Shown here: positions 1 through 60,400 of the stretch, piece after piece
Layout of the letters: each line of letters opens with the position of its first letter
Position numbering within the stretch: the stretch's first letter is position 1
Virus record (IMG/VR): IMGVR_UViG_3300028048_000045
Location: 1 to 64,000 of that record
Reading direction: 5' to 3' (one strand)
From: a virus
Taxonomy: Duplodnaviria > Caudoviricetes
DNA length: 64,000 nt
Made by a program: the position numbers and the translations under genes
Notes under the pieces: model-generated
Databases searched by the model: none
Seen by the model: the letters and a program-made list of their open reading frames with translations, nothing else
What the model was told of the DNA's origin: nothing

Positions 1-47
1 AATTACTACGTGAACTATCCTGCTATTGGTGTGCGCCCTTGCTTCAT
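1..47 (+). repeat. DGR variable repeat (VR, truncated by window edge) with IMH
   Basis: 41/47 identical to 1550-1596. All 6 mismatches (VR 4, 7, 16, 22, 23, 42) face an A in TR. Confidence 0.95.
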
Positions 48-54
48 GTTATAA
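1..54 (+). CDS. 3' end of DGR target protein (variable repeat, C-type-lectin-fold C-terminus); gene starts before window
   Basis: Frame 1 reads NYYVNYPAIGVRPCFML-stop. GVRP-x-F is the usual end of CLec-type DGR variable proteins, and it matches the TR at 1550-1596. Confidence 0.9.
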   Translation, partial: NYYVNYPAIGVRPCFML

Positions 55-85
55 TTATTGAATGTAGTATGATAATTTATTAATT

Positions 86-148
86 ACGTTTTTATACATT
101 TGAAAATGAGCGAACGAAGTATCGCGAAATTTTCATGTATAAAAACGT
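86..148. promoter_or_regulatory. Hairpin/cruciform downstream of VR (candidate DGR target-recognition element)
   Basis: acgtttttataca(tt)tgaaaat pairs with attttcatgtataaaaacgt; inner gcga/tcgc stem and ac-GAA-gt cap. Confidence 0.6.
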
Positions 149-165
149 TTTTTTTTTGTAAAAAA

Positions 166-200
166 ATAGAAGGGATTAGTTCCCTTCTATTTTTATTTTT
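166..200 (+). terminator. Intrinsic terminator after DGR target gene
   Basis: atagaaggga-ttagt-tcccttctat followed by a T tract. Confidence 0.75.
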
Positions 201-220
201 AAAATTACTATAATATAATA

Positions 221-634
221 ATGTATATGAATTTATGTGGTGAACGAGCTCTTATTACTAAATTTAATTTAACTAAAGAAACTATTTTACAAATGCCTGA
301 AAAAGAAATAACATTTCTTTTAAAAGAATTACAGAAAGAAAAAGAGATTGATGAAAACCCTATTTTAAAAAATATCGTTATAGTTGAACGTTTAAGTAAT
401 AATGATATTACATGGAAATTTTATAAAGATTATTTATTAAATAAAACAGAGTTTAAAATATTAAGTAATGTTATATCTAGTATAGATGAACGGACATTAT
501 ACAATTATATTAAAAGATATGATGAATTAAATAGATATGAATTGATAGATGTTTTATTTTATGAAAGAAAAATTATTAATAAGAAATTTAAAAATATTTA
601 TATAAATGATATTTTGAATATGAGGATAATATGA
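221..634 (+). CDS. Hypothetical protein inside the DGR cassette
   Basis: 137-aa ORF; ATGA overlap with the Avd-like gene. Confidence 0.65.
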   Translation: MYMNLCGERALITKFNLTKETILQMPEKEITFLLKELQKEKEIDENPILKNIVIVERLSNNDITWKFYKDYLLNKTEFKILSNVISSIDERTLYNYIKRYDELNRYELIDVLFYERKIINKKFKNIYINDILNMRII

Positions 635-1458
635 AAATAATTAAATCTGACGAAACAGAAAATGATGATTTAAAAGAAATTGAAAATAAAATGAAATCTG
701 AATATTATAAAACTAAGAAAATAATTTGTAAAGAAATGGAGGATTTTTTCTTTATGTCAGTTTTAAAATGTGATCGTACGTTTACACAATTAACTATAGA
801 TGATAAAATGATAATTTTCAGAAATAAAATCGATACTATTTTTTATCCATATTTAGATAAAGTTATTTTTGATAATAGAATGAACGTATTTAAAATAATT
901 AATGATGAATATAATTATAAACTTAATGAATATGAAATAAATAATTTTGAACACAATGTGAATGAATTTAAAACAGCTATATCTAATTTAATTTATAAAA
1001 TATTAAAAGCTTTACGTAAAACACATATGTATGATTATACAAAATCTTATGTCGGGAAATATAAAAGACTTGAAAATTATAATTTGGTAATGGTTATGAT
1101 AAATGATTTAATAGACAATTTTAATAGATTTAGTATTAAATATAAAAATTCTATATGGTCATTGACACCATATATTATATTATTAGAAAACATTAAAAAA
1201 GATTTAAATTTAGTAATTAAAAATATTAGATCAGCTTTAAATAAAATGCAAAGAAAAACTGCTATTATTTTAGATGAACCTATAAAAAGAAAACTTTTTA
1301 ATATTTTTACACAAACTAGAATAACATTAAAAGAACAAGATTTAAGTTTGATAAAATCATTATTTAATGAGAATCAACGAAAGAAATTAAACAAATATAT
1401 CAAATCAAATAAATCTATAAATAAAACTAAAAATGTAATAGTTCATATTGATAAATAA
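631..1458 (+). CDS. Avd-like DGR accessory protein (divergent, extended)
   Basis: Immediately upstream of TR. Helical pattern (SEYYKTKKIICKEM...ISNLIYKILKALRKTHMY...KRLENYNLVM...LTPYIILLENIKKDL) resembles four-helix Avd proteins. Confidence 0.6.
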   Translation: MKIIKSDETENDDLKEIENKMKSEYYKTKKIICKEMEDFFFMSVLKCDRTFTQLTIDDKMIIFRNKIDTIFYPYLDKVIFDNRMNVFKIINDEYNYKLNEYEINNFEHNVNEFKTAISNLIYKILKALRKTHMYDYTKSYVGKYKRLENYNLVMVMINDLIDNFNRFSIKYKNSIWSLTPYIILLENIKKDLNLVIKNIRSALNKMQRKTAIILDEPIKRKLFNIFTQTRITLKEQDLSLIKSLFNENQRKKLNKYIKSNKSINKTKNVIVHIDK

Positions 1459-1465
1459 ATAATAA

Positions 1466-1596
1466 AATAGGTATCGGTCTATATGTTCTAATTCTGGCAA
1501 TGCGTCGAATGTGAATAATCCTGATAATTCTGACTTCGGGAATGCTAACAATAACAACGTGAACAATCCTAATATTGGTGTGCGCCCTTGATTCAT
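1466..1596 (+). repeat. DGR template repeat (TR)
   Basis: Non-coding and AAY-rich (15 Asn codons in the VR frame: NRYRSICSNSGNASNVNNPDNSDFGNANNNNVNNPNIGVRP). 3' part matches VR; 5' boundary is approximate. Confidence 0.92.
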
Positions 1597-1834
1597 TATT
1601 ATATACATGGTTAGACTTATGTCGACTATTTATATGATAATGAAGGAGATCGTTTTCCTTAGTTCTTTTAAAGAACTTAAACTATGATACGTTGAAAAGA
1701 GTGTTTACATAGTTTATATTAATTTTAATATAAAATTTTTTATTTTATTATTTATTAATAAAATAGCTCAAATTTCTTAATATTTAATATAAATTAAATA
1801 TACGTATTGTTTTTTTATTATGGAGGTTATAAAA

Positions 1835-3166
1835 ATGATAGTTTTTACACCTATGAATATTTATTATAATTATATAGAAAAATATAAAGAATCTCAAAAA
1901 TTGATAATTAATGTAGAACAAATAGATCACTCTATTGAAAATGTGATTTTGTTACACAAACTAAAATGTATAAATTATAAACAGTGTTGTTCAAAATTAA
2001 AAGCTTTATATAATAAACGAAAACGTCAAATACGACGCCAAATTAATTTTTTTAATAACTATACTTTAAAATATGATTATTATTATCCGTTAATAGATAT
2101 GAATAACTATATCGATATTTTTTATAAATGTAGAAAAAGTACAGCTTGGAAAAGAACTTATCAGAATTTTAATATTAATATTATTAAAAATATAAGTTAT
2201 ATTTGGTATAATATGATGAATAATTCTATAAATACTTTACCACATAAACATTTTAAAGTAAATGAACGAGGTAAAATAAGGGATATTTCTGCTCCAGAAA
2301 TAAATGAAAGATTAATACAATCTAATTTATCTTTTAATATAGCTCACCCATTAATGGATAATACTTTAATATTTGATAATTATGCAAGTCAACTTAATAA
2401 AGGAACAACAATTGCAAGAAAACGTTATAAGAAATTTTTAATAGAAAATTATAAATATAATAAAGATGATTCATATGTTTTAAAAATAGATATTAAAAAA
2501 TTTTTTGATTCTATAGATCATAATATTTCCATGGATAAATGGAATAAATATATTAAAAATGAATACGTTTTAAATATTATTAAACAAATTTTGGATAAAA
2601 AACTTAACTCTAATGGGATCGGATTATGTTTAGGATCAGAATTATCTCAATTAACGGCTTCATTATATTTATCTAAAATGGATCATATGTTGAAAGAATG
2701 TTATAGAATAAAGTGGTATGGAAGATATAATGATGATATTTGTATTATACATAAATCTAAAGAATTTTTGATAAATCTTTTAAAACAAATTAAAATAGGT
2801 TTGTCTACAATAGGACTAAAAATAAACGAAATTAAAACTAAAATGATCCATTTAAAAAATAATTCATTTACTATTTTAAAAACAAAATATTTTTACGATA
2901 AGTATAAAAATTGTGGTAAAGTGATAATGTTATCTGGTAGAAAATCATCTAAAATAGAAAGAAGAAAACTTAGAAAATTTAAAACTAAAATGTTAAATAA
3001 AATTATGACTTTCTTAGAAATATTTAATTTATATAAAGCTTGGAGAAAAAATATATTAAAATCATTTAATGCTTATAATCTTATTAGTAGAAATGATGAA
3101 TATTTTAAATATTTGTTTAATTTAAAATATGCTAATTTTAAAAATAAAATCTATATATTTAAATAA
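1835..3166 (+). CDS. DGR reverse transcriptase
   Basis: RT motifs ERGKIRDI, ERLIQ, KIDIKKFFDSIDH, GLCLGSELSQ (DGR-type SQ), YGRYNDD. Start moved to ATG 1835 behind GGAGG. Confidence 0.95.
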   Translation: MIVFTPMNIYYNYIEKYKESQKLIINVEQIDHSIENVILLHKLKCINYKQCCSKLKALYNKRKRQIRRQINFFNNYTLKYDYYYPLIDMNNYIDIFYKCRKSTAWKRTYQNFNINIIKNISYIWYNMMNNSINTLPHKHFKVNERGKIRDISAPEINERLIQSNLSFNIAHPLMDNTLIFDNYASQLNKGTTIARKRYKKFLIENYKYNKDDSYVLKIDIKKFFDSIDHNISMDKWNKYIKNEYVLNIIKQILDKKLNSNGIGLCLGSELSQLTASLYLSKMDHMLKECYRIKWYGRYNDDICIIHKSKEFLINLLKQIKIGLSTIGLKINEIKTKMIHLKNNSFTILKTKYFYDKYKNCGKVIMLSGRKSSKIERRKLRKFKTKMLNKIMTFLEIFNLYKAWRKNILKSFNAYNLISRNDEYFKYLFNLKYANFKNKIYIFK

Positions 3167-3200
3167 ACCTAGGAATATTCCTAGGTTTATTTTATTATTT
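3161..3200 (+). terminator. Intrinsic terminator after RT
   Basis: aaataaacctagga-atat-tcctaggtttattt. Confidence 0.75.
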
Positions 3201-3302
3201 TTTATCACAAATATCATAATTTTTAGTTTTAAATATGAAAATTTTGTCATATCTTACTATTTTATACATATTATGTGTATTCTTTTTTATAATTACGTTT
3301 TG

Positions 3303-3315
3303 ACATTTAGATATA
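3303..3315 (+). promoter_or_regulatory. Late-type phage promoter ACA-N5-ATATA
   Basis: ACAtttagATATA upstream of 3347. Confidence 0.7.
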
Positions 3316-3346
3316 ACATTGATAATTATGTAAAGGAGTATATATT

Positions 3347-6300
3347 ATGAATGAGAACTCTTTTGATGAGAACAATTTACTCTACGTTCGCAAAAATTAT
3401 GAAGTAGAAGTAACTGAAAAAGCTCGTAAAATATTCGCAGATAATACCGTTCAAACTACTCTTGATGAAACAAATAAAAAACTTGATGAACTCATTGCTG
3501 AAATGAATGATAAATTAGGTTTTGTAACTCAAAAGATGGTTGGTAAAAATGGTATTGAAGAATATGTAAAAGATGTACATAACCAGATCGATAACACTAC
3601 TGTTGATGTAACACAGTTAGTAGATTCTGGAATAGTTAGATCTGGATCACATCCATCTATTACAACTTTTAAAAACAATCGCTCCGAAACAAAATATAAA
3701 ACTTATGATTTCATCAATAAAACAATTGATATTGGTTTTAAAGATCAAGCACTTCGTTTTTATAATAATACTGATATTCATGACGGTGATAAAGTTCATG
3801 CATTTGATATTCGTATGAATGATGTTGAACATCTTAAAATTATTGAGTTCGCATTTACTTATTCTCAGTTCCCAGATATTGTAAAAATTGTTAATGGTGA
3901 TGTTTATAGAGAACCTACTACTAAAATTAATAGAGTATTCTATGGTCGTTTCTTTATTATTCGTCACGATCCTGTTAATGCTCCTGATGAAATCATTGTT
4001 AAAGCTATTGTTGAAAATGCAGATAATACTGGTAATGTTGTAGATGAATATGCTATCGATGTAAAGAAATCTAACATCGAAGATAAGATTTCTTTGAAAA
4101 ATGAAATCGGACCTGTTTTCGATATTTATTTCCGTATAGCATCGAGAAATGATTTACTTATTTGTATCGGAAGTATCAATCCTTATAAATATTTACTTCA
4201 AAAAAGCTATGTGGAATCGAATAAACAGATTATTGATAATTTCAATCTTCTTAAATCTGGAATTGAATCTATTAAATTCGATAAAGTATTTTATTCTGAA
4301 AATCAGAATAAAATGTTTATTGTTGATAATGAACAAGATAAGATTTATATTATCCCAGCTTTTGATAAGTTTACTATAGATAATATTTCTATGGATAATG
4401 TTACAGTTTATGATAAACTTACAACTGATGGGTTCTTTGTAAAAGATGTAAGTTCTTATACCTTTATTGGTGACAATTCTAAACATTGTTACGTTTATCC
4501 TAGTGGTAATTTTACAGAATACGTTGATCTCGGAGTAAATGTAGAAGATGTACAGATGATGAGTACAAATGAAATTATTGTACAAGTTGGTTCTGTATTA
4601 AATGGACGTAAAATCTCACGTCTTCATATGTTTAATTATTCCACATCAAATATCAATAATACAATATTTGGAGAATTCCATATAAGTACAACTGATATTA
4701 ATTTCGTTCAGAAAAATAAATTTGCTGAATATGAACCTGGAAAAATAATCCTTGTTTCAAATTCAAGAAATGGTACTATCTATTATAAGTTTTTAAGATC
4801 AAATAATTCTACAAATACTTATACAAATGGGGCTATTGAATCTGTAACTGTTGAACAGAAAATTGATATCGAAGAATTGGAAAGTTTTGATCCTAAAAAT
4901 GATGGTACAACATTAGATCTTATTCGCTCAGAAACTGGTATTTTTATACATCTTAATTATGAATCAGAGATTAATGGAAAGAAAACAGTTATTTTATCAG
5001 TTAGAGATTTAAAGATAAATAAATCTAATTATATATTTAAACACACTGATATTCTTAAGAAATATAATAAAACAACTAATGTTTCTTATTCATTAACAGA
5101 TATTATTAAGAAAATAGTTTCTACATCTTTATTTACTTTCGGTATTACAGATGATAATAAACTTTTAATAATTGATGATAATTATATCATTGAAGCGCTT
5201 AATTTTGTTCCAGTAGAAGAAAATGGTGAAGTTAAAGGTTATTCGGATAAAGATTCTGTTCTTTATATGAAACCTATTGAAGGTGAAGAAGAATTATATC
5301 TTATCGACAAACCATATTTACAAGATGTTAAAGCTATTTATCAATCTTTTAAAGGAAACATTTATATTCTTGATGGTAAGGGTGTTTATGAACTTACAAC
5401 TACTAAAAATTTAGTATGTAAATTTTGGACAGATAATAGTACATTTACAGATATAGTTGTAAATAAAATTACAGAAGCTTATATCATATCTGAAAAAGAT
5501 GGAAAACAAAATATTTTCTGTCATAATTTTGACTACGATAATTCATCTTCTAAAAAACTTAGACATAAGTATTTCGATCTTATCAATGGTGATTATGAAA
5601 AATATGATCCTGATAACAATTATACAAATTATTCGTCTAATGAAACAATGATGATTGATTTTAAAGCAAAGCTTTATTGTACTTTGATTGATAAGTTATC
5701 ATCTATTTACAATTCTAAAGATGTACATAATATGTATTATACTAATGATACATATACATTTAATGATTTTAATCCTGCTAAACCACATAATATTGATTTG
5801 GTTGTAAATGGTCAGAGTGTTACTAAGAATATCACAATTAATAAATTTATACTCAGTGCAAATAAATATGGTTTTGTTAATTATTTCGGATTTACTTTAT
5901 TAAATACAAATAATCTTTCCGATATAAATGATGAAAACTTATATGTTTTGATTCATAAATCTGGAGATGGCCTTTCAATTACAGATTATCGTGAAGCAAT
6001 TTACAGACTTATTAGAGAACAGACTATTAATGAAAATGACAAATATGATTCTCAAGGAAATTTAAAACCTGAATATGAATCAACTATGACTGTTACTAAA
6101 AAATACAAATCTGTGAATAAAAATAGAGTATTCAGACATCCACGATGTACTATATCTAACGATGTGTCCGATTACAATAATGATTCCGAATTAATGAAAT
6201 TCGAACATGGTAAATTTAAAGGTTCATTATTATCTGATAAATTCTCTTACATTTATAAAGATACTCTTTATAATTTGGCACAAACTAGAACTGAAATAGG

Positions 6301-9300
6301 TTTAAATAATATTTCACCAGTATATGAAAAACTTATCATGGGTAAATTACCGGTAATATTTATGAATTCATTCGATGACGATGATTTGAATCCTAAATAT
6401 GGTAAACGAATAGATCCATTTAATGTAGTCTATAACAGAATAAATTATTTTGTCGGTTATGATAAATCTGGGGATGAAATCAATCTTGTTATTGTTAAAG
6501 AATCTTCATCTAGAAGCGATAATTCATCTGTAATGTCTGTCGTAAAAACCATTTCAAATGTTATATCGGCTAGAGCTATAAATAATGAGCTATATTATAG
6601 TAAAGCTAATGGTGGATTATTCTGTTTAAACGATGAAATGGAAGAAGTTGTAAAAGTATCTCCTGCATTAGGTTATGTTTTCTATGATTTTACTGAATTA
6701 GATGGTGAAATTTATGGCGTAACTAACAATGGTGTTTTCGTTAAAATAAATAAAGACAATCCTATAATTGTGCCGGATGTAATTATTGGAGATACAACTA
6801 ATGTTACGGCTATTGATGGAAGAATTTTAGCAGATATTTATAATTTTGAAAATAGTGATAAACTTATTATTCGTATTTCACATATCAATGATAATGTTAC
6901 AGATTTGTATGTACCTTACATTTATGTAATATCTAAATCAGATGTTAATGAATATTCTATTATTCAGAAACCATTTAGATACAAATATACAGATTATGAA
7001 ACATTGTGTAAATCTTCTCAAGATTTTATATTTAAGTTTGTAAAAATCAATAATACTGTTTTTGCACAAGGTTCGAATAATTTTATATTTGATGAAAAAA
7101 CATTACAATTCAAAACATTTGTAAATGCTTTACCATTACAAAATTCTATAGCTCCAATCACTTATTGGCCTTTGACATATCAAGAGTTCTATAGTAATAA
7201 TAGATTATCTCTTACAGATTATCTTATTAAAACACCATATAATATAGGATGTTTTATTCCATCATCTGGAAATGTTGCTATGATTATAGATGATATTTCT
7301 AAAGAATATATTAGAAGAGAACTTACACCTGTTGATTCGGTAAATCCTCCAATGACAGATGTTACAAATATTAATCCTGATGGAACTATAATTGGTCGAA
7401 TTAGTAATAATATATCTTCTGGTAAAAAATATAGAATAGAAGTTTTGAAAAACGGTAAGGTTTGTATAAATGATACCGTTGTTAGTAAGATCGATAATAA
7501 CGAAACTAAACAAACATTAGATAGTTCATATACAGTTAGCGACATAAACGCCGTAGTGTATAAAAACAATATACGAATAGAAAAAGATGTTATAACCGGT
7601 ACATATAATATTAAAGATATTAATGGAAATCTTATAAATCTGTTTAAACTTGATTATAAAAGATGTTCATGGAATAGTTTGAAATTTACAGGAACTGTAA
7701 CTGTCGGTCAATTACTTGACAAACATATTATACCATATAGATACGTCGTAGATGATGCATCAAAATTTGAAAAAGTAGATACTAATGCTGTCAAATATCC
7801 TGTTCCTGGTATAACATATTATACAAAAATTACAGCTGGTAGTTATGATCATTATGAAGCTGTTTCAGAAGATATTTCTAAATGGGAAGTAAATTCTTCA
7901 GGAAAAGTTGAATATTTTGAACCAAAGCATCATTACGAATCGATTACAAATGTAACAGACGCAATTGTTGCAGGTTCGTATGTGTTTGTTTGTGAAAATA
8001 GATATTTCTCAAAAGTTGAAATAACAGCTAATGAGGATGGTGAATTAAATCTTCCTAATACAGAAGAATATTATACCCTTTCGACTAAATCTGTACCTGT
8101 TGATCTTTCTAAAGTTATAGATGAACGTGCTGTATTTATTTTAAATGATGATAAAGTATTATTACATGCTAAAGTTGATGGCATTTATAAAACTATTATT
8201 TATGATACATATTTTGAAAATGATTTTACTAGACATGATGTATGGAATAGGGTATATCCTAAAGCTGGTTTTGATATAAAACGTATTTGGGAAACATCTA
8301 GAGGAAAATTTGCTGTAATTAATATTCCTTGTTATGATCATTATTTCGTAGGTTTAATTTCCGATGATTTACAATCGATTTATTGTAAATTAGATTACGA
8401 TATCGATGATCCTGGATGTGTACATTTAATAGATACTGAAAAAGAATTACTTATTTCTATAGCTACTTCAGACTATACAGGCGAAGTTAATTATAATTAC
8501 GATTCATCTCTTAATAAATTCGTAATTTCTAAAGTACCTTTAATTTATATAGATTCTGTAAAAGTTGGAGGAATCACATATCTTGCTGCTATTAAAAATA
8601 TCAGAGATCCTTCCACAGATACAAATCAGCTGAGTTTTTCCATCTATGATATTGATAAAAATTTATTACTTTCAATTAATAAAGGTATAACTGTACCAGT
8701 TTACAATACTACTAGAAATAATGTTAAACAATTCGATAATGTTTTTGTTAAACGTTTTAATTCTATTACTGGAAAAGAAGAAGCTTATGTATTCTTTATG
8801 TCGAATACATCTAAAAATGATACTTCAGATGATTCTGTTTATGATTGTATCCATATTTCCGAAAAAGGTGTAGAATTAGAAGATTTGAATCTCTTAGCAT
8901 ATACCAAATTTGGTGATTTTGGTGGAAAACCAACATTTGTAAACACAATGTTAACTCCTGAAAATAAAATTTTATTAATCTGTTCTTATTCAACTATATT
9001 TAGTTTGGAAGAAAATGGATCTATAAATGTCATCACAGGTGCACCATCATTTATTAAACCGATAAATGATAATAGAAATGGTATCGTTGGTTTAGGAGAT
9101 ATTGTATTTAGAAATACACATTCTGATATTCCAAGTATTTCGAGTATAGAAGATAATGAAAATAAATTACCATCTATATACAATTGGTATTATTATAACC
9201 GAGTAAATAACACATATTTGATAGATTCGTCAGAATCTTATAGAGATAATATGTTAGGATATTTTAAAGATTATCAATTGTTAATAGATTATAAATTCTA

Positions 9301-11626
9301 TCTTACGAATATTTTCCAGAAATGTTATATTTCTGAAGGAAATGTATTAGATCCATTCGATATTATTTTCAAATATACATTGTGTGGTGGAGAAATAAAA
9401 CCATATTCTGAATCATCATTGTTTATAACAGATCCAAAATCTTTGATAAAACAAAAATGTTTACCTGTATCTTATAAAGATACTATGGTATTCAGTACAT
9501 CCATATTGGATGTACAAACAGGTGAACCTTCTTCAAATTGGTTCTCTATTTATGATTCTAATAAAACTACATTAATTTCAAGTTTCGTTAGTTTCGATTA
9601 TTTATTCGTTACTAAATCTGGAAAAATGTTTGGTGTATATGAATCTAGTATTTACGAAAATGATGACGTTTTATCATCTTCTAAATGGTTTAAAGTAGAA
9701 GGTGGTTCTGTTCATGAAAATGAATACACTGCTAATGGATTTAATCATAACACATTTAAGAAAATGTTTGAAACTCGATATGGTATATTCTATTTCGATA
9801 GTAAAAATATTCTTAAATATAATGAAGAATCTGATAAATTCGAAGTTGTCCGTCATGAATTTGATTTAACAAAAAATAATCTTAACTTTGCAGAAAACTT
9901 CAATACAGGTTTATTCATTGGAAATAAACGTGATAATGTGTTTGAAAAAAGAAGAAAAGCTGCAGGTTTTAATGAATCGGATTTCTCAACAACCGGTATA
10001 AACTTTAATTATTATGATCCTAAACAAAATGAATTTGTTTCGTTACTTCCGAACACAATATTAACATCGGTTCCGAAAATGTCAATATCTAGAATAGTTG
10101 ACATTCAAGAAACCTCAAGAGGTGTATTTATCCTCTATTGTGCAAATGATAATACTTATAAAAATACAATTTTTAGATGTTATTTATCAATCCATAATGT
10201 ATTATTGTGGGAAGAATGTAAATACAAAACAACTTTTAAATTGTTAAATGGATCATCGTATACCAATGAATATCCTTGTAACCACAGTCAAATTTGGGAA
10301 GATGAGACTTCAAATACTATTTGGATTTCCGGAACAACATATGTTACTACTGAAAATAATAATGGTATGACGATGTCTGATTATCAGAATACTGATATTA
10401 CAATCGGTAGATATTCCGGAGCATGGGCTTATCGTAAGTTCTCAGAAAATGATAATGACGATTATAGACATAATCATGGAATTGATTTCCGTTTCGAACC
10501 AAATATTCCAAAAACATCTCTTGATGATTTAACAGATACAAAAGGTTCGACAATTTATGCTAGAAAACATGGTAATCCGTTATTTGATAAATTTAATGGA
10601 TTGGAAAAAATTGTTAGTACAAAGTTTGGAAACTTCGCAATATCTAGTGATATCTCTCCAATTTTCATTAAATCTCGTGCATTTATTTATAAAATAAATG
10701 GTGTTGGTTTTAATGATGAAATAAATAGTGTTACATATTTTAATTATGAAAAATTATCTTCATCTGGAATCTCAAGCGATGTTGAAGATGCTTATTATTG
10801 TAAAGAAATAAATGGTAAATTGATTATAATTTTCAATGGAAATGATACTCATAGTATTTATATTTATGAATATGATTTAGAAAATAATAAATTTATTCCT
10901 TATTTCGCATATAGTGGATATACTACAAGTTCATCTGAATTTATAGAAAAGATTATAACTGATGTAGAACTTACAGAATATAATGGAATTGTTTATATGA
11001 AACCTTCTATTGATTCCAATATCTTTATGTTTGGTGATAAACAATTTGATGGCATAATAAGTTCTCCGGAATCAGAATCGAATAATGTTCTTTATGAACT
11101 AAGGGCTATTTTTGATAATCAAGATTCGTATAATAACCTTGTCGAAAAAACAGATAATTCTAATTTGGATAAATTTGTTTTTAAAGAAATTGGTATAGTT
11201 GATGGTATTACTGGGCTTACAAAACACATATTCCAGTATTTTGAACCTAATGAATTTTATAACGAATCCGATGGTATAGTTAAACCTTTAATTACTAAGC
11301 CTCGTGAATTCCATCAGTCTAATTCTATTAAGCAACTGTATAAAAATATTTATCAGAAGTTTAAATCTAAGAATCTTATTAATAATAGATACCTTAAACA
11401 AGGACAATCTATCATTGCCGATGGATTTAAACATGAAGTTTCTGAAATACTTGGTGATGTTGAGAACTATTTAGTTAATACAGATAATGTAAGAATAGAA
11501 TTAAAAATCTATCCTGCAGAAACTGAAGATTTTATAGATTCTAATATTAAACCTTGTAAATTCGGAATAACTACTAGCGTTGCTGTTGATGAAAGTGGTA
11601 TCGAACCATTTGATCCATACGATTAA
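3347..11626 (+). CDS. Very large beta-rich virion protein (tail fibre/baseplate-associated candidate)
   Basis: 2759 aa; AAGGAG RBS; late-type promoter; N-terminal coiled segment then propeller-like repeats (ETSRGxF, ETRYGIF, STKFGNF). Function inferred. Confidence 0.55.
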   Translation: MNENSFDENNLLYVRKNYEVEVTEKARKIFADNTVQTTLDETNKKLDELIAEMNDKLGFVTQKMVGKNGIEEYVKDVHNQIDNTTVDVTQLVDSGIVRSGSHPSITTFKNNRSETKYKTYDFINKTIDIGFKDQALRFYNNTDIHDGDKVHAFDIRMNDVEHLKIIEFAFTYSQFPDIVKIVNGDVYREPTTKINRVFYGRFFIIRHDPVNAPDEIIVKAIVENADNTGNVVDEYAIDVKKSNIEDKISLKNEIGPVFDIYFRIASRNDLLICIGSINPYKYLLQKSYVESNKQIIDNFNLLKSGIESIKFDKVFYSENQNKMFIVDNEQDKIYIIPAFDKFTIDNISMDNVTVYDKLTTDGFFVKDVSSYTFIGDNSKHCYVYPSGNFTEYVDLGVNVEDVQMMSTNEIIVQVGSVLNGRKISRLHMFNYSTSNINNTIFGEFHISTTDINFVQKNKFAEYEPGKIILVSNSRNGTIYYKFLRSNNSTNTYTNGAIESVTVEQKIDIEELESFDPKNDGTTLDLIRSETGIFIHLNYESEINGKKTVILSVRDLKINKSNYIFKHTDILKKYNKTTNVSYSLTDIIKKIVSTSLFTFGITDDNKLLIIDDNYIIEALNFVPVEENGEVKGYSDKDSVLYMKPIEGEEELYLIDKPYLQDVKAIYQSFKGNIYILDGKGVYELTTTKNLVCKFWTDNSTFTDIVVNKITEAYIISEKDGKQNIFCHNFDYDNSSSKKLRHKYFDLINGDYEKYDPDNNYTNYSSNETMMIDFKAKLYCTLIDKLSSIYNSKDVHNMYYTNDTYTFNDFNPAKPHNIDLVVNGQSVTKNITINKFILSANKYGFVNYFGFTLLNTNNLSDINDENLYVLIHKSGDGLSITDYREAIYRLIREQTINENDKYDSQGNLKPEYESTMTVTKKYKSVNKNRVFRHPRCTISNDVSDYNNDSELMKFEHGKFKGSLLSDKFSYIYKDTLYNLAQTRTEIGLNNISPVYEKLIMGKLPVIFMNSFDDDDLNPKYGKRIDPFNVVYNRINYFVGYDKSGDEINLVIVKESSSRSDNSSVMSVVKTISNVISARAINNELYYSKANGGLFCLNDEMEEVVKVSPALGYVFYDFTELDGEIYGVTNNGVFVKINKDNPIIVPDVIIGDTTNVTAIDGRILADIYNFENSDKLIIRISHINDNVTDLYVPYIYVISKSDVNEYSIIQKPFRYKYTDYETLCKSSQDFIFKFVKINNTVFAQGSNNFIFDEKTLQFKTFVNALPLQNSIAPITYWPLTYQEFYSNNRLSLTDYLIKTPYNIGCFIPSSGNVAMIIDDISKEYIRRELTPVDSVNPPMTDVTNINPDGTIIGRISNNISSGKKYRIEVLKNGKVCINDTVVSKIDNNETKQTLDSSYTVSDINAVVYKNNIRIEKDVITGTYNIKDINGNLINLFKLDYKRCSWNSLKFTGTVTVGQLLDKHIIPYRYVVDDASKFEKVDTNAVKYPVPGITYYTKITAGSYDHYEAVSEDISKWEVNSSGKVEYFEPKHHYESITNVTDAIVAGSYVFVCENRYFSKVEITANEDGELNLPNTEEYYTLSTKSVPVDLSKVIDERAVFILNDDKVLLHAKVDGIYKTIIYDTYFENDFTRHDVWNRVYPKAGFDIKRIWETSRGKFAVINIPCYDHYFVGLISDDLQSIYCKLDYDIDDPGCVHLIDTEKELLISIATSDYTGEVNYNYDSSLNKFVISKVPLIYIDSVKVGGITYLAAIKNIRDPSTDTNQLSFSIYDIDKNLLLSINKGITVPVYNTTRNNVKQFDNVFVKRFNSITGKEEAYVFFMSNTSKNDTSDDSVYDCIHISEKGVELEDLNLLAYTKFGDFGGKPTFVNTMLTPENKILLICSYSTIFSLEENGSINVITGAPSFIKPINDNRNGIVGLGDIVFRNTHSDIPSISSIEDNENKLPSIYNWYYYNRVNNTYLIDSSESYRDNMLGYFKDYQLLIDYKFYLTNIFQKCYISEGNVLDPFDIIFKYTLCGGEIKPYSESSLFITDPKSLIKQKCLPVSYKDTMVFSTSILDVQTGEPSSNWFSIYDSNKTTLISSFVSFDYLFVTKSGKMFGVYESSIYENDDVLSSSKWFKVEGGSVHENEYTANGFNHNTFKKMFETRYGIFYFDSKNILKYNEESDKFEVVRHEFDLTKNNLNFAENFNTGLFIGNKRDNVFEKRRKAAGFNESDFSTTGINFNYYDPKQNEFVSLLPNTILTSVPKMSISRIVDIQETSRGVFILYCANDNTYKNTIFRCYLSIHNVLLWEECKYKTTFKLLNGSSYTNEYPCNHSQIWEDETSNTIWISGTTYVTTENNNGMTMSDYQNTDITIGRYSGAWAYRKFSENDNDDYRHNHGIDFRFEPNIPKTSLDDLTDTKGSTIYARKHGNPLFDKFNGLEKIVSTKFGNFAISSDISPIFIKSRAFIYKINGVGFNDEINSVTYFNYEKLSSSGISSDVEDAYYCKEINGKLIIIFNGNDTHSIYIYEYDLENNKFIPYFAYSGYTTSSSEFIEKIITDVELTEYNGIVYMKPSIDSNIFMFGDKQFDGIISSPESESNNVLYELRAIFDNQDSYNNLVEKTDNSNLDKFVFKEIGIVDGITGLTKHIFQYFEPNEFYNESDGIVKPLITKPREFHQSNSIKQLYKNIYQKFKSKNLINNRYLKQGQSIIADGFKHEVSEILGDVENYLVNTDNVRIELKIYPAETEDFIDSNIKPCKFGITTSVAVDESGIEPFDPYD

Positions 11627-15450: not shown

Positions 15451-16668
15451 ATGAGAATTTTAGATCCCATTTCAAACAATTTATCTTTAGGAACTGATGA
15501 ATATTCTGATACAATAGGTATAGTTTTTAAAACTGATGAAGAAATAGGGGCTCCACAATTAGGAGTAATTATACCTAAATTTATGTTAGGATATACGTTT
15601 AAAAATGGTGATAAAGCTACAGAAGAATCTATTAGTGTTAAAGGAAAAAAATGTATAAATGAAGATTCTAATTCTTATTGGGATTCCTCTATAACACTTA
15701 AAAATTATATTACGGTAGATCCTTTATTGAATCAAAACCAATCAATGGCTAAATACACTGTTGGTGATAAGGTTTTGATATCTATGATCGATAATGATAT
15801 AAAAACTTTAGCTTTTTTACCATATAGTATTAACCGTTTAGGTCAAAGAGCAACCGATAAATTTTTGTTAGCAGTACCAGCAAACGAGCACGAAAATACA
15901 GCATTAAGTGAAGACAATTCATATTTTATTAAAATGGATTCAACTAAAGATGTTCAAATTTTACAAATAGCGACATCTAATAAAAATAATGAAACTTGTA
16001 TGTTTAGACTTACTATGGATTCTAAAAATGGTGTAATGACTATCGATGATGATAGTGGTGACCGTAGTTGGGAAATGAATTATCAAGATGATGCTATAGT
16101 TACAAAAACATCTGGAACATCAATTACACAAAAAGCTGATAAAATTACAATGGAAGCTGATACTATTGAAGGTATAGCTAAAACAAAAATATCCTTCGAT
16201 GTAAAAGATGGGGATTTTGAAGTAAATGCATCTAATATAAAAGAAAAATCTTCTGATACAAAATATGAATTTGATAATTTTAAACAAACTTCAGATGTAG
16301 GTACATATGAAGTTAAAAATGAAAAACACAATGGTACATCAGCATCATTTAAAGAAAAAACATTCCATTGTGATACTCCAACTATCGGTTTGAATGGATC
16401 TGTTGTATTACCAACTTTCGCAATTGGCAATGTACCAGATATTAATGTACCGGTTCCAGCTGTTAACGGAAAGTCTGGACCTAAAGGTTCTACAGTATTC
16501 CAAACTGATCCTTCTGGAGTTCCACTTGTTAAATTCCCTCAATTGATGGCTTGTTTAGCACAGCTTGCTGTGGCAGCAGATATGTTTCCTTGTGGAGCTG
16601 GTATGGGTTCAGCTGCAGTTGCTATATTTGCTGGTGGCGGATCTACTACAAAAATAATGGGATCTTAG
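15451..16668 (+). CDS. Baseplate central spike (gp5/gpV-like)
   Basis: OB-fold-like N-terminus (VGDKVLISMIDND) followed by short beta-repeat region; next to gp53-like gene. Confidence 0.6.
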   Translation: MRILDPISNNLSLGTDEYSDTIGIVFKTDEEIGAPQLGVIIPKFMLGYTFKNGDKATEESISVKGKKCINEDSNSYWDSSITLKNYITVDPLLNQNQSMAKYTVGDKVLISMIDNDIKTLAFLPYSINRLGQRATDKFLLAVPANEHENTALSEDNSYFIKMDSTKDVQILQIATSNKNNETCMFRLTMDSKNGVMTIDDDSGDRSWEMNYQDDAIVTKTSGTSITQKADKITMEADTIEGIAKTKISFDVKDGDFEVNASNIKEKSSDTKYEFDNFKQTSDVGTYEVKNEKHNGTSASFKEKTFHCDTPTIGLNGSVVLPTFAIGNVPDINVPVPAVNGKSGPKGSTVFQTDPSGVPLVKFPQLMACLAQLAVAADMFPCGAGMGSAAVAIFAGGGSTTKIMGS

Positions 16669-54461: not shown

Positions 54462-57400
54462 ATGAAAAAAGGTAATAATTCTGGAAATGATGATTTTTCT
54501 TTTTCTACCGGTGGTGGAGACGAATTCTTTCCTTTAAATGTTGATAAAAATAATAATAAAGATACCAAAGCTCCTAAAGGAGTAAAAGGGTATCTTAAAA
54601 ATGTTGCAAAATCTGTAGTTAATCTTGGTGTTAAAACTGGAAAACATTTATATCCTGAAGCTGTTGAACTTGGTGAAAAATTTAAACCTGATACAACCTC
54701 TACAACTAATCCAAAAGCATATATTGCTAACTGGAAAGCTGAAGCTAAAAAATATACTGATATCGGTAAAGATATACTTGGAAGCGCTGTAAAAGATGCT
54801 AAAGATGCAGTAAGAACTGGTAAATTTGTAAAAACTGAAGACGAACGTAATAATGCTGAAGAAATGTTCGGTGATATGTTTGGTGATGATGGGTTCGACT
54901 TTGGTGGTGATAGTGTTTCATTTGATTCTGATATAGGTGGAGATGATTCTAATTTTAATCTCGGATCAGATGACGATAGTGGTTCTGTTGGAGCTACTTT
55001 AAATGTTGGTTCTGCTGTTGTAAAATCAAGTTACGCTAATGCAAGATTAAATACAAAACTTACTGAAACAACCAATGCTACAATAGTTGGTGCTACTCAA
55101 ACTCAAATTAAATCTGATAGAGCAATGTTTGCTCAAAATCTTGAAATTTCTCAAGAACAACATCGACAGAAAATGTTGATGATGACAAATATTGCAACAA
55201 ATATTGGTAAGATCATCGAGCAGGGAAATGTTTCTATAAAAGCTCAGATAGAATTCTCTGCTAAACAATTGGCATTCTCTCAAGATTTAGCCGCTATGGT
55301 TAAAGAAGTTAGAGATGCTCAATGGGCTCAAATTAAACCTAAGAAAGCCGGCGATGTTAAGAAATCTAAATTCCAATCTATATTTGGAAATGGCAAAACT
55401 AGCGGATTTAATCTTGGAGAATTTCAGAAACATTTCTTTAATAGTATGAAATCTGAAGCTGCTGGTGGAGCATTCGATATGCTTGGCACTGGTAAAGAAA
55501 TGATCGACATGATGATGGATATGGGTGGTGGTGCAGGTGCTTTAAAGAACATGATATCCGATATGCTCTTTGAATCTGCTGTAGATGCTATCACTGGCGG
55601 TCGATCTTCTTATGGCTCAAGATTATTAAATTCTAAACTTGAAGGGTTACCTGGTGCTGTAAATCGTAAATTAGGTTCTATATCAAAACGAGGTGCTCCT
55701 GGTTTAGAAAAACTATTAGGTAAATTACCATTTGGTATTGGAAATAAAATAGATCTAAAACAACTTGCTGGTTGGGCTCACGTAGATAACGATGTTAAAT
55801 TAAAGTCCGGCAAATATGATATGGATCCGTCAGAAGTACATCCATTTGATAATGCTGCTCATAAAGCTTTAACAGAAGTTATCCCTTGGCAACTTGCAAA
55901 AATCGATGCTGGTATCAATAGAACTGAACAAGAATTTTTTAATTACAAGAGTAATAAATGGGAAAAAGTTTCTTCTATTAGAAAACATCTTGATAGAACT
56001 AGAGAAGAAGTTCTTGAATATTCTAACGGATATAGTGCTATTAATGATCGTCTTGCTACAGGTATCGATTTAAAGAATTCTTATAAACAAATTCTTACCG
56101 AATATGAAACCAATCCTACATTCAAAGCAGGATATTATAATAAAACTTGGAATAAAGATAAAGCGCAAGCTGCAGTTAATTTAGGTACTGAAGCTAAAAA
56201 ATTCATTATGAAAAATAAGAAAACTCTTATTCATAATGTTATGATGATTGCTTCTGATGAAGAAATGGATGATGTATTAGCTTCATTACTTGATAATGAA
56301 TCTGATAATTTCCCTAGATTCTTTGAAGGGGTCCCATCTCCTACTGGAGAATTAACTGAAGAAATCGTAGCTTATTATTTATACAATACAATTAAAGAAT
56401 TTTCTAAAGCTGAACCTCAGGAATGGATTTCTTTCCAAACAGATCTGGCTAGTTATAAAAATAAATTAACTTCTAACAACTTTGAAAATGAAGATAAATA
56501 TTTTGGAGCTGGAGCAGGTATAGCTTTCGATGCTTCTATTTCTAGCGATATTTTTGAAAATGAACGTAATGAATTAAATAAACAGCGTCAAAAATTGGAA
56601 AAAAGAAAAGAAGCTTTACTTAAAAAAGATAGTAAAACTCTAAAGTTAGAATCTTTAAGTAGCAAATATTTAGGTAAAGACGTTGAAAGTGTAAAAGATA
56701 TTAACGATCAACTTAAAAAATTAAGTGCTGCTGAAAGAGATTTAAATGAACGAGAAGCTACTAGTACAACAGGTATGCTTAAAGTTCATTCTCCTTCCGA
56801 CGCTGATAAATTTATTATTTCAGATTTACACGATAGTTCTACACACGGTTTAATAAATAATATCTTTAATCTTTTGTTAACTGGATTGGATGTTTATGTT
56901 AAAAATCCTTCAGGTAAACAACACGATTACCATAAACAAATTATAGATAGTGCTCTTTCTATAAAAGAAGCTGCTATAAGAAAATCTAAAGCTTCTGAAA
57001 CTGAAGAAGATGAATCTAATGTATTCGGTGTAGATTCTGTTAGTAAAACTTTAGCAGATCGCGAGGCTTCTTTTAATTCTTCTGATAAAGCATTTGAAAA
57101 TACACTTTGGGGAAAAATACCTGGAATGAAAAGTGTTTATAGAGCTTTTAATAAAGCTACTAATGGTATTAATAATTTTGGTAACAGAATTCTTGGTGAA
57201 AATTTCTATTCTGTACATGATTCATTCCAACCTATTGATGAAAATGGTGAATATTTTAGAACAGTACTTACAGAAGAAGAACGTTCTAAATATCGCGAAT
57301 TGAAGAATCAATATGATTCTGCTCCTAAAGAAGCTAAAGATAAGATTAAATCTGAAATCAAAACTTTATTGATGAAATCAAAGAACTCTAAAGCTGCTAA

Positions 57401-60400
57401 ATCTTTAAAATTTGGAGCAAACATTTTCACATCAGCTTTCAATAGATCTGAACTTTCAAAATCTATTAAAGTTTTAGGTTCTAAACTTTCTAGAGTTTCT
57501 GTAAAAGGTAAAACTCTTGGTGAATATGTATCTGAAACTAATAATTCAGAATTGATGAATAAACTCTCTAAAGCTACATCTGTAGAAGAAAAAATCAATA
57601 TTATTAGAGATATGGGTTCTTCTAAAGCAAAAGCTTTTGCTGATGAAGCTCAGAAACAATATAATACTAATAAATCTAAATTCGATTCTGATTTTAAAGA
57701 TAGTGCAAGTGGAAAATATACTCTAGATAGTATAAAAGCTGGTTTAGGTAAGAAAATTTATAGTGGACTTTCTACTGTTCAGAATAAAGTTCTTGGTAAC
57801 GAATTAGTTAATATTAAAGATGCTAAGGGTAATAAATTAAAAGATACTCTTGCTGAAATAAATAGTCAAGTTCTTAATTATAAACTTGCTAAAGAACCTG
57901 ATCCTGCAGAAAAATGTAAGATTTTGTTAAACGCAGATTACAAAGAACTTGAACCTTTCAAACCTAAGATTGAAGAATTTAGAGCTAAAGCTCTTGAAGA
58001 TCTTAGTAATTCTGGTTCTATAAAAGGTATACTTGGAAACTTTAAAAACAAGATACTTGATACTGTTAAAAATAAAATCGGTGGAAAATTAGCAGCAATG
58101 AATCAGAATAGAATTTTATCTGGAGACCTTATCAAGTTAAAAAATAAGGAAACTGGTAAAACTATTGGACAAATTGTTTCTGAAATAAACGATCCTTCTT
58201 TAATTTTAAATCTTAATTCTGCTAAATCTGTAGATGAAAAAATCAATATTTTACTTGCTTATGATAATCCTCAATTAAACAAATGCAAACAAGATTTAAT
58301 TAAATTTAAAAAGTCTGCAGCTTCATTGGATAAATCATTCGGTGGTATAGTTGCTTGGACTAAACAAAGAGGAAAAGAAAATCTTGATAAATTCATTAAG
58401 AACACTTTAATTAAGAAATTAAAGAAAATTAAAGTTGGAGAAAAAACTCTTGGTGAAGTTCTTGGAGAAATAGCTAAAAAAGATCCTAGTTTTGGTGAAA
58501 AGATCGAATCTTTCAATACTATGACTGATTTAGCAGAATTCTTACTTCAAAGTTCTAATCCAGAATTACAACCTTTTAAGAAAGCTATTCGTGAATTAAA
58601 AGATAAACATATGGATGATGAAGCACAAGGTGGAGTAGCTGGTATTGTTGGAATGGGTCTTGTTACAGGTTTCGATATGATTAAGAAATCTATCGACGGT
58701 GTTAAGAGTTTATTTAGTAAACGTAAAAAAGATGCTAATGAAGAGTTATCTATAATTGAAAAATATGTTCATCCCGATATTATTAAATTATTTGGTGGAA
58801 CAAAAGCTACAATGGATGTAATCGATTCTCTCGGTATTGATGTCGAATTAGCTTTCAAAGATAATGAATATCATAAAGCTTCTAAACAAATTGAATTTAT
58901 TCTCGATGCTAACAAATCTGCTAAACGCCTTAATGGTAAACAGAAACGTGCTCTTAAAGGTTTGATGAGATCTGAACTTGATAAAGAAGCTGCAACAGCA
59001 TCTATCAATTCTATTAATTCAAAAATTTCATCTATAAATAATAGTTTCCAAAATGAAATGTCTAAATATGGTGATTCTATGTCTGCTTCTGAAAAGAAAC
59101 GGTTAGAAGCTATGAGAGATGAAGATCTTGATAGAGAAAATCGTAAATTAGACAAAGCTAAAAATCGTAAAGATAAAGCTTCTAGAAAAATAAATAATGC
59201 TCTTGGTGATGAAGACGGTGTAGAAGGCAATTCAGCCAGTGAACAACGTGAAGCTAAAGCTAGAGCTAAAGAAGAAAAAGAAAGAGCTAAAGAAAATAAA
59301 ATGCGTTTTGGTTTACTTTCTACATTAGTTTCAACTATTACTGGTTGGAAAAAGAAAGGATTTAAACTAGACGATGAATCTACTAGTAAAATGCAAGATG
59401 CTATTTCTGAAGGAGCTAAACAGGGTTCTAGTGAAGGTTGGTCTGGAAAGATTTCAGCATTCATGGATAATACAGGTTTAAGTAATACTAAACTTGGTAA
59501 AGGAATACAGACTGTATTAAATAAAGGTGGATCTTTTGCTAGACATATAACTGGAAATGATAAAATAGCATCATTCTTAGGAAAATCTAAGATTGGTAGT
59601 ACTGTTTTAGGAGTTGCTGGTAAATTTGGTGGTGGCGCAGCTGCTGCTACTGGTGGTTCATCAATGTTAGGTGGAGCTGCTGCTGCAGTTGGTGGCGGTG
59701 GTACAGCATTAGGTGGATTAACAAAAGTTTTACAAAAAATTTTAAGTGCGCCTAAAGTAATAGCTAAACTTGGTAAATCTGGCGTCCAAACAGTCATTTC
59801 TGGTATAAAAGATGGTGCTAAAAGAGTATTAACTAAGATATTCCCTAAATTAGCTACTTTAAACGGTATGGCTACTAACTTTGTAGGTTGGGCTGCTTTA
59901 GCAGCAACAGCAGTTACAAATTTCATTAAAGGAATGTCTAGAGCTAAAACTACATTTAATATCGGTAGAGGTTTAAGACCTACTGTTGGTATGCGTTTAG
60001 CTTGTGGTTTGGCTGCAATGCTCGATGGTGTACTTTTAGGAATACCTGGTACTATTTGTAAAGCTATGGGATTTAGAAATGCTGAAGAATGGTTCTATTC
60101 TATAGTTGGAAAAACTGCAGAAAAAGAAGCATTGAGTAGATATGCAAAATATAATAGTATGCGTGCTACTATTTTCGGTATCGATGATCCTCAGAACTTG
60201 ATAGCTTATGAAAATAGAAATCTTGAAAAAGGTGGAAATTTCTTTGATAATCTTGGTTCTGGTGCTAAACGTTTAGGAAGAGCTATTGCTAATGTAGCTA
60301 CATTAGGAATTGCTAAAAACAATGATGAAAAAGATTCACAGTTACTCGGATTCCAATCTGTTGATATTTTCAAGATGTGGAAAGAGAGAAAATATACTCC

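Follow-up and report, generated by a model that had tools for sequence, protein, structure and literature searches.

Organization of the locus and type of phage

The window analysed here is the first 64,000 nt of IMG/VR record IMGVR_UViG_3300028048_000045 (276,071 bp, 99% complete). It opens with the 3' part of a VR (VR1), followed by two conserved genes (orf137 and orf275), a template repeat (TR), a spacer and a reverse transcriptase (RT) gene; the parts of this diversity-generating retroelement (DGR) are listed in Table 1. The last 148 nt of the record overlap window positions 1-148 at 141 of 148 positions, indicating that the assembly circle was cut within VR1. The DGR appears to have broken this circle, and phages of this kind would therefore be mislabelled as 'linear'. 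The remainder of the VR1-bearing gene was recovered from the other end of the record, which completes both the target gene and the VR that had been seen only in part.

The genome has a GC content of 29% and contains matches to tail sheath, baseplate and virion protein PHROGs. Its terminase is ~27-31% identical to those of Goslar, Ea35-70, SA002 and other phages (~29% for the three named), and two RNA_pol_Rpb2_6 matches, one of them above the cut-off, mark genes for RNA polymerase beta-like proteins. With a genome of >200 kb, myophage tail genes, a group-related terminase and split multisubunit RNA polymerase genes, the phage is by gene content an uncultured phiKZ/AR9-type jumbo myophage from the gut, in agreement with the first-pass annotation of the window. 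The name Chimalliviridae applies to phiKZ/AR9-type jumbo phages if they are nucleus-forming. Searches of the genome with Goslar chimallin and PhuZ, single distant queries that could miss divergent homologues, gave no match, and the Tubulin profile gave one sub-threshold match (13.8 bits).

Table 1. Features of the DGR cassette and its first target, in window coordinates or in coordinates of the whole record (G000).
Feature	Position	Strand	Remarks
VR1, 3' part, second allele	window 1..47	+	6/6 mismatches to TR (window 1550-1596) on adenines
GC-rich IMH-like element GGTGTGCGCCCTTG, 3' end of VR1	window 28..41	+	identical copy in TR at 1577-1590
Long imperfect hairpin, ~40 nt 3' of VR1	window 86..148	+	DNA fold
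Intrinsic-terminator-like hairpin ending the target gene transcript	window 162..194	+	
orf137, small conserved cassette gene	window 221..634	+	without family match; weak HTH leads (ESM Atlas)
orf275, probable Avd-like accessory protein	window 631..1458	+	predicted four-helix bundle
TR, 112 nt	window 1485..1596	+	33 adenines, 14 AAY codons in the VR reading frame
TR-RT spacer	window 1597..1819	+	conserved core ~1641-1716
DGR reverse transcriptase	window 1835..3166	+	RVT_1 2.9e-19; phrog_1423 1.5e-59
Terminator-like hairpin closing the cassette	window 3161..3192	+	same hairpin and last RT codons persist behind VR2
Target 1, 1,205 aa	G000 272360-275977		VR1 at 3' end; at other end of record, upstream across the circular junction
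Full VR1, 112 nt	G000 275859-275970		3' end of the 1,205-aa target gene

The template repeat and VR1

The full VR1 differs from TR at 18 of 112 positions, all of them among the 33 TR adenines, while none of the 79 non-adenine positions is changed (Fisher p = 3.7e-12 for adenine specificity). The allele at the start of the window had been described as carrying six mismatches produced by adenine mutagenesis. All six do fall on TR adenines, but one of them (tga>tgc at position 1591) is more likely a fixed VR/TR difference of the IMH versus IMH* type, as the position lies 3' of the GC-rich element; it is C in both VR1 alleles and in VR2, and A in TR. In the RPCFML tail of the aligned tips, Cys is found in 14 of 15 sequences and Gly in one (P0080). 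The earlier figure of 15 AAY codons (15^15, about 4e17 variants) also requires correction: TR contains 14, giving 15^14, or ~2.9e16, variants, and ~1.9e18 if the GAT, GAC and ATT codons of TR are counted as well.

A genome-wide search for further copies of the repeat found the 14-nt GC-rich element only in TR, in both terminal copies of VR1 and, carrying two substitutions, in VR2. No second TR was detected in the genome, and scans of IMG/VR and JGI metagenomes with A-masked VR patterns gave no match.

Target proteins and a second, deleted cassette

Beyond the window, the genome encodes a 2,960-aa paralogue of target 1 that has the same C-terminal domain and carries VR2; VR1 and VR2 both stop 7 nt short of the ORF end, stop codon included. 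VR2 shows 17 mismatches to TR at adenines and 14 at non-adenine positions, a distribution that is still A-biased (p = 4e-4). VR2 was considered as a current target of TR and rejected on the basis of its 14 non-A mismatches, the two substitutions in its GC-rich element and the lack of a downstream hairpin. Behind VR2 lies a stump that matches window positions 169-294 and 3140-3193 and is, judging from these matches, the remnant of a second cassette from which ~2.85 kb has been lost. Given its mismatches to TR and the remains of a deleted cassette behind it, VR2 was probably written by a template of its own that is now gone.

The tip family shared by the two targets shows a weak relationship to DUF6273, which is matched in 10 of 15 members, one of them above the gathering score; target 2 scores 27.9 bits and target 1 scores 22.0 bits (cut-off 23.5). 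Published DGRs target DUF6273 domains whose C-terminus contains the VR, and models assign the domain a C-type lectin fold (PMC10743442, PMC11792537). These profile matches lend only indirect support to a reading of the tip as a divergent, C-type-lectin-like DUF6273 domain, and so to the CLec-fold target of the first-pass annotation. An AF2 model of the tip, built from 6 sequences, proved unusable (pLDDT 36.7). An hhalign comparison of the tip family with one Roos DUF6273 domain was insignificant (probability 2%), and the tip profile found only a chance-level match among PDB sequences.

The targets might instead be surface-exposed adhesins of another kind, for instance Hoc-like or tentaclin-like decorations that attach to mucus or to other ligands, or proteins outside the virion, and not receptor-binding fibers, which we regard as unlikely but worth serious consideration. 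In gut phages, tentaclin/Hoc-like proteins also have DUF6273 tips (PMC10743442). Neither target has a tail-fiber family match, and the 2,960-aa target contains a long, Ala- and Glu-rich stretch that resembles a coiled coil. On the other side, a gene with a baseplate-assembly PHROG match (window 15451-16668) lies within ~15 kb of the target genes, and in characterized phage DGRs the target is a receptor-binding protein, as exemplified by Mtd of BPP-1. Receptor binding is the presumed role of both targets.

Accessory genes and cis-acting elements

The product of orf275 is a probable Avd-like helper, as suggested by its AF2 model (pLDDT 72.6), in which a four-helix bundle (approximately residues 53-210) is extended at both termini. 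Among natural structures, the model is best matched by 2gsc_D (Xcc0516), 2rld_E (BT_0352), the Avd structure 4dwl_C, and 8ub8_C; the match to BPP-1 Avd 4dwl_C has a Z-score of 11.0 and an rmsd of 2.1 over 108 of 110 residues, in a fold class where bundles can reach Z ~11 by chance. For orf275, no match from Foldseek alone reached significance, and its ESM Atlas search was empty. Profile searches detected no Avd or HRDC sequence match for either orf137 or orf275, and a dedicated Avd profile, made from the nd12 protein and 19 IMG/VR neighbors, detected neither of them. The predicted complex of RT and orf275 scored a median of 0.31 against a mark of 0.32, which counts neither for nor against binding. 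Gene order provides a further line of evidence: in a relative, L094, a homolog 38% identical to orf275 is located directly upstream of TR, in synteny with TR and RT, and L094 also keeps the C-terminal end of orf137 and its ATGA stop/start overlap with orf275.

The DNA fold of window positions 28-200 has a predicted energy of -32.4 kcal/mol (z = -8.0), and the long hairpin at 86-148 within it is a candidate target-recognition cruciform. This hairpin is absent behind VR2, where the region is largely missing. Together with the 14-nt GC-rich element and the C (VR) versus A (TR) that follows it, the hairpin would form a putative IMH/IMH*-type set of directionality signals. The core of the TR-RT spacer comprises a putative hairpin, AAGGAGAT-GTTTTCCTT, followed by further predicted stems. 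In a comparison of two sequences, this core is kept in L094 (RT 55% identical), in contrast to the intergenic DNA on either side, which has diverged. The spacer is presumed to be the 3' part of the DGR RNA and to serve in priming. An Rfam scan of window positions 1-3400 returned nothing meaningful, and a sigma-70 promoter scan was uninformative in this AT-rich DNA.

VR1 alleles and probable activity of the element

Seven positions distinguish the two copies of VR1 at the record ends, and every one of them is a TR-adenine site (p = 1e-4). These two alleles could stem from two co-assembled strains. Thirteen further VR1 alleles were identified in ENA metagenome fragments, and these vary at the AAY-encoded positions; the residues specified by other codons (S, SG, AS, V, PD, SDFG, A, V, GVRP) and the CFML tail show little, though some, variation among the ENA tips. 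Several close strains carry deletions across the DGR cassette, so the element is dispensable.

The element had been described as an apparently intact DGR, and it does look intact and recently active, since VR1 contains zero non-A mismatches, the RT motifs are whole, two VR1 alleles are found in one assembly and more occur in other metagenomes. That the element is instead a recent fossil, its mutational pattern and alleles recording past activity or activity in other strains while the copy in this genome no longer homes, is improbable. Such a history would fit with the repeated deletion of the cassette in close strains, the prior loss of the second cassette from this very genome and the drift of VR2 from TR. 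It fits poorly with an RT ORF that is full length with whole catalytic motifs (LGSELSQ and YNDD, the latter in YGRYNDD), with a VR1 lacking any non-A mismatch in 79 positions, with a GC-rich element that is identical in TR and VR1, and with two co-assembled VR1 alleles that differ at A sites only. It is thus highly probable that this is a complete DGR of the classical kind, most likely active in the sampled population.

The reverse transcriptase

The RT is probably translated from the ATG at position 1835, which has a GGAGG 8 nt upstream; the longest ORF begins at 1820, and 443-aa relatives of the protein begin with MIVFT. It is the only gene in the whole genome with an RVT_1 domain. The best phage matches to the RT are DGR RTs, with ~30% identity to the RTs of gut phages that have DUF6273 targets. 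In a tree whose outgroup was four group II RTs, the RT nests within the clade formed by BPP-1 (Brt), ANMV-1, nd12 and Roos, split from the group II RTs with an SH-aLRT of 100; its closest characterized relatives there are the gut-phage DGR RTs of nd12 and Roos. The RT phylogeny thus places the enzyme in the DGR lineage and apart from group II intron RTs, and the DGR-type GSELSQ noted previously is read in the ORF as LGSELSQ, along with YNDD. A single-protein scan of IMG/VR found no relative, a profile scan of the same resource found only RTs of ≤38% identity on contigs of ≤139 kb, and blastn and tblastn searches of GenBank phages with the cassette and the target tip gave no match.

A retron, group II intron or defense RT next to an ordinary paralogous duplication is hardly credible at this locus: many DRT models match weakly, but the profile scores against group II TIGR04416 (100 bits, cut-off 300), Drt3a (61.6 bits, cut-off 200), Drt2 (49.6 bits, cut-off 390) and retron St85 (43.2 bits, cut-off 235) all fall far under their curated cut-offs, motif 4 is of the [LIV]GxxxSQ type and not the QGxxxSP of group II RTs, the tree with its group II outgroup puts the enzyme among DGR RTs, and ordinary duplication cannot account for mismatches confined to adenines. 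The assignment as a DGR in the first-pass annotation is upheld by these adenine-only differences between TR and VR, the position of the RT in the DGR clade and the gene order target-accessory-TR-RT.

Proposed mechanism

The mechanism is the known one for DGRs, and its steps at this locus may be proposed as follows. The orf137 and orf275 genes, TR, the conserved spacer and the RT gene would form one transcription unit between the two terminators. The RT would reverse-transcribe the TR-spacer RNA, probably with the Avd-like orf275 protein, miscopying adenines in the process, and the resulting cDNA would replace VR1, the final 112 nt of the 1,205-aa gene. Homing would be steered by the GC-rich element common to TR and VR, and probably also by the hairpin 3' of VR1. 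With its adenines placed in 14 AAY codons, TR could give rise to as many as ~1e16-1e18 different protein tips on the DUF6273-type (C-type-lectin-like) domain.

A wider reading, which we put forward tentatively, is that this is a probably lytic, self-transcribing jumbo phage whose DGR employs non-canonical helpers (a double-size protein of Avd fold and a small conserved HTH-like protein), and that its ancestor possessed two full cassettes, one for each giant virion protein, with present-day strains arranged in a series that runs from two cassettes over one to none.

Comparison with known systems

Most work on DGRs has dealt with temperate and crAss-like phages. Cultured phiKZ/AR9-type phages are lytic, and the group attracts interest both for therapeutic use and because of its unusual cell biology. 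A literature search found no paper reporting a DGR in a phage of this type.

The layout of the element resembles that of BPP-1 (mtd-avd-TR-brt), with a target bearing a 3' VR, an accessory gene, TR and RT in the same order. As in BPP-1, the TR/VR differences are adenine-only and concentrated in AAY codons, a GC-rich element lies at the 3' ends of VR and TR and is immediately followed by a fixed difference, and a hairpin occurs downstream of VR, though it is ~40 nt away here and adjacent in BPP-1. The RTs belong to the same clade but are only distantly related, and orf275 may share a fold with Avd (4dwl), with no sequence match. The systems differ in their phages, BPP-1 being a 42-kb temperate podophage and the phage described here a 276-kb phiKZ/AR9-type myophage; in the size of the accessory protein (275 aa versus 128 aa for Avd); in the presence here of an additional conserved 137-aa gene; and in the target tip, which is DUF6273-like and not Mtd-like.

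The DGRs of gut phages with DUF6273 targets, namely nd4, nd12 and the Faecalibacterium phages Roos, Pioen and Lelie (PMC10743442, PMC11792537), share with this element a tip with matches to DUF6273, the location of VR at the C-terminal end and the presence of two ORFs between target and TR. In nd4 and nd12, one element is known to have two targets; here there appear to have been two whole cassettes, one per target. The gut-phage elements reside in siphophages or small myophages of 30-55 kb, many of them temperate. The targets of the present phage differ from theirs in size, at 1,205 and 2,960 aa, and neither orf137 nor orf275 is recognized by the profile of their Avd family.

Among jumbo phages, the closest parallel is MarsHill, an AR9-like Staphylococcus phage that likewise encodes an RT (gp206) in a jumbo myophage with its own multisubunit RNA polymerases. 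In MarsHill, TR, VR, Avd and IMH were not found and the RT was classed as retron-like, not DGR (bioRxiv 10.1101/2020.12.14.422802), whereas all of the DGR parts, some of them putative, are present here. Lectin-type domains of the kind diversified by DGRs were not found in any of the 224 cultured jumbo phages of a comparative study (PMC7824862). If the element works, giant phages of the phiKZ/AR9 type also use targeted hypermutation of virion tips, and the present case would add targets of great length (1,205 and 2,960 aa) and an Avd-like helper that sequence comparison fails to recognize. The series of strains with two, one and no cassettes, if true, would provide a ready system for studying a DGR during lytic jumbo-phage infection, and could address how the RT and its cDNA reach the replicating phage DNA.

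Repeats and genome ends

The first-pass annotation took a repeat pair in the window and the neighboring reverse transcriptase (RT) gene for an apparently intact diversity-generating retroelement (DGR), and that observation is correct. Positions 1-47 align without gaps to 1550-1596 with six mismatches, all at an adenine of the 1550-1596 copy, and the RT carries the motifs described below. Completed from the whole record (G000), upstream part included, the variable repeat of target 1 (VR1) differs from the template repeat (TR) at 18 positions, all among the 33 TR adenines, with 0/79 differences elsewhere (p = 3.7e-12). One of the six mismatches, at position 1591 (TGA in TR, TGC in VR), is nonetheless interpreted as a difference fixed between VR and TR, of the kind found between IMH and IMH*, the directionality elements of DGRs; mutagenesis is set aside as its cause since the two VR1 alleles and VR2, the variable repeat of target 2, all have C there. 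The residue that it encodes is Cys in 14 of 15 aligned target tips and Gly in the related protein P0080. Position 1591 lies just 3' of a GC-rich element common to TR and VR, GGTGTGCGCCCTTG, whose copies genome-wide are confined to TR, VR1 and, with two substitutions, VR2. In the VR frame TR contains 14 AAY codons, and not 15 as previously counted, giving a theoretical repertoire of 2.9e16, or 1.9e18 when GAT, GAC and ATT are counted too.

The source record (276,071 bp, 29.4% GC, 99% complete by CheckV), whose first 64 kb make up the window, is labeled linear in IMG/VR. Its last 148 nt (G000 275924-276071) are identical to window 1-148 at 141 positions, and all seven differences fall in the first 23 nt and where the template is A (chance 1e-4). 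Because this end overlap differs solely at template-A sites, the map closes into a circle, and the true genome length is about 275,923 bp. The assembly break fell inside the hypervariable repeat, with one VR1 allele retained at each record end, and the linear label results solely from these allele differences interrupting the overlap.

Coordinates of the DGR features, giant ORFs and cassette derivatives
Feature	Location	Remarks
Target 1 ORF, 1,205 aa	G000 272360-275977	probable start ATG 272372 (comparison with orthologue P0077)
Complete VR1	G000 275859-275970	last 112 nt of 1,205-aa ORF
Terminator-like hairpins	window 162-194 and 3161-3192	bound unit of orf137, orf275, TR, spacer and RT
orf137	window 221-634 (+)
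orf275	window 631-1458 (+)
TR	window 1485-1596
RT	window 1835-3166 (+)	likely start
Giant ORF	window 3347-11626
Giant ORF	window 54462-62714
Target 2 ORF, 2,960 aa (giant ORF)	G000 262758-271640	ends in VR2
VR2	G000 271522-271633	3' end of 2,960-aa ORF
Stump of second DGR cassette	G000 271696-271886 (L009, a stretch of the same record, 15625-15815)	directly behind VR2
orf275-RT fusion	P0009, P0026, P0046
orf137-RT fusion	P0010	on 266-kb contig
orf137-target tip fusion	P0094
orf275-SEC-C motif tail fusion	P0074
Truncated RT	L095 (a relative) 1-513

Reverse transcriptase

The 448-aa ORF at 1820-3166 contains the motifs LGSELSQ, which includes the DGR-type GSELSQ noted earlier, and YGRYNDD. Its likely start is 1835, based on the N terminus of close relatives (443 aa, beginning MIVFT) and a GGAGG 8 nt upstream. 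This is the sole RVT_1 gene of the genome, with profile matches to RVT_1 (2.9e-19) and phrog_1423 (1.5e-59), and its best GenBank phage matches (~27-31% identity) are DGR-bearing phages, namely Roseburia Shimadzu, nd12/nd4, Faecalibacterium phages, ANMV-1 and BPP-1. Scores against curated models of group II intron, Drt2/3a and retron RTs were far under the cut-offs, and motif 4 reads [LIV]GxxxSQ in this RT and the DGR references as opposed to QGxxxSP in four group II RTs. In a maximum-likelihood tree of DGR references and four group II RTs, the protein nests in a clade of BPP-1 Brt, ANMV-1, nd12 and Roos that is split from the group II RTs with an SH-aLRT of 100.

Accessory genes and spacer

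Neither orf137 nor orf275 has a match in Pfam, PHROGs, NCBIfam or PADLOC, and neither is detected by a profile of the DGR accessory protein Avd (nd12 Avd plus IMG/VR relatives); Pfam also misses the published nd12 Avd. The JGI contig L094, whose RT is 55% identical and which retains a related TR, also has the end of orf137 and an orf275 homologue (38% identity) with the ATGA overlap preserved, which indicates that both genes belong to the element. A spacer core is conserved between window 1641-1716 and L094 1018-1095, comprising a hairpin (AAGGAGAT-GTTTTCCTT) and the stems after it; this core may supply the structured stretch of the DGR RNA involved in priming, a pair of sequences being too few to assess covariation. 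A weak Rfam match to sraA at window 86-199 (29.9 bits, gathering score 56, E 0.075) spans two hairpins downstream of VR1 and is almost certainly a chance stem-loop match.

AF2 models orf275 (pLDDT 72.6) with a four-helix bundle spanning residues ~53-210. Its top structural matches are de novo designed bundles, followed by 2gsc_D (Xcc0516) and 2rld_E (BT_0352, entry title "S23 ribosomal protein family"), both of which we take to be members of the Pfam family that includes Avd. The model also matches BPP-1 Avd (4dwl_C; Z 11.0, rmsd 2.1 A, 108/110 residues), as well as the Avd chain in the 8ub8 structure of a DGR RNP. Because helical bundles attain scores of this size by chance, the orf275 product is considered a probable Avd-like helper. 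Searches with orf137 gave weak HTH leads only.

Second target and cassette instability

Target 2 resembles target 1 only in its last 278 residues (76% identity), and a family scan of this giant ORF gave no match. VR2 and TR differ at 31 positions, of which 17 are A in TR and 14 are other bases; the differences are A-biased (p = 4e-4), but the 14 non-A changes exclude VR2 as a product of the present TR. VR2 is also without the 86-148 hairpin, and no second TR is present in the whole genome. The stump behind VR2 consists of a copy of window 169-294 (94% identity; terminator, leader and the first ~25 orf137 codons, this remnant being cut by TAA) and a copy of window 3140-3193 (88% identity; last RT codons and terminator), which means that a second cassette has lost about 2.85 kb, including a TR and most of an RT. 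We infer that VR2 was written by the deleted cassette's own template. Three giant ORFs (2,750-2,960 aa) are present in the genome, and that at 3347-11626, which follows directly after the RT, has no detectable similarity to target 2.

The cassettes of relatives are unstable, like this second cassette. Close strains carry in-frame fusion proteins across the cassette, several with junctions at short residues common to both partners (e.g., KYKN); these suggest that the DGR region often recombines or is decaying. All of the listed fusions and truncations apart from P0094 delete TR.

Target tip

Among 1.84 billion representative proteins, the last ~275 target residues have only ten relatives, each belonging to this phage lineage. 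The C-terminal half of the tip, VR included, is matched by Pfam DUF6273 at 27.9 bits in target 2 (cut-off 23.5) and 22.0 in target 1; the family matches 10 of 15 relatives at E <= 0.01, and three have a precomputed PF19789 match. In gut phages, DUF6273 is a published target of DGRs that carries VR at its C terminus, and a C-type lectin fold has been modeled for it (PMC10743442, PMC11792537). The C-type lectin fold proposed earlier for the tip is accordingly supported by family assignment and not by a structure of its own, the AF2 model being unusable. Thirteen natural tips on ENA fragments have the frame WLATNSS-x-SG-x-AS-x-V-xx-PD-x-SDFG-x-A-xxxx-V-...-GVRPCFML and vary mainly at TR-encoded Asn positions. 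Their contigs are mostly about 1-2 kb (largest 6.2 kb), as expected if VR breaks assemblies.

Phage type and comparison with known DGRs

The placement among phiKZ/AR9-like jumbo phages holds. The genome encodes a tail sheath, baseplate protein, virion protein, DnaB-like helicase and a terminase ~27-31% identical to those of Goslar, Ea35-70, SA002 and other phiKZ-like phages, and has two RNAP beta-like matches. Goslar chimallin and PhuZ queries had no match anywhere in the genome; a sub-threshold Tubulin match (PF00091, 13.8 bits, G000 131518-131607 (-)) lies inside a 441-aa ORF that is possibly a very divergent PhuZ-like protein.

No paper was found reporting a DGR in the phiKZ/AR9-type group. 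Lectin-type (FGS) domains diversified by DGRs were absent from 224 jumbo phages (Iyer et al., PMC7824862), the RT of MarsHill was classed as non-DGR (bioRxiv 10.1101/2020.12.14.422802), and jumbo phages are not discussed by Roux et al. 2021. At the position of orf137, phage Roos has an ORF whose RHH-like matches are weak and sub-threshold, followed by a second small ORF. The DGR mechanism in the present phage is the classical one.
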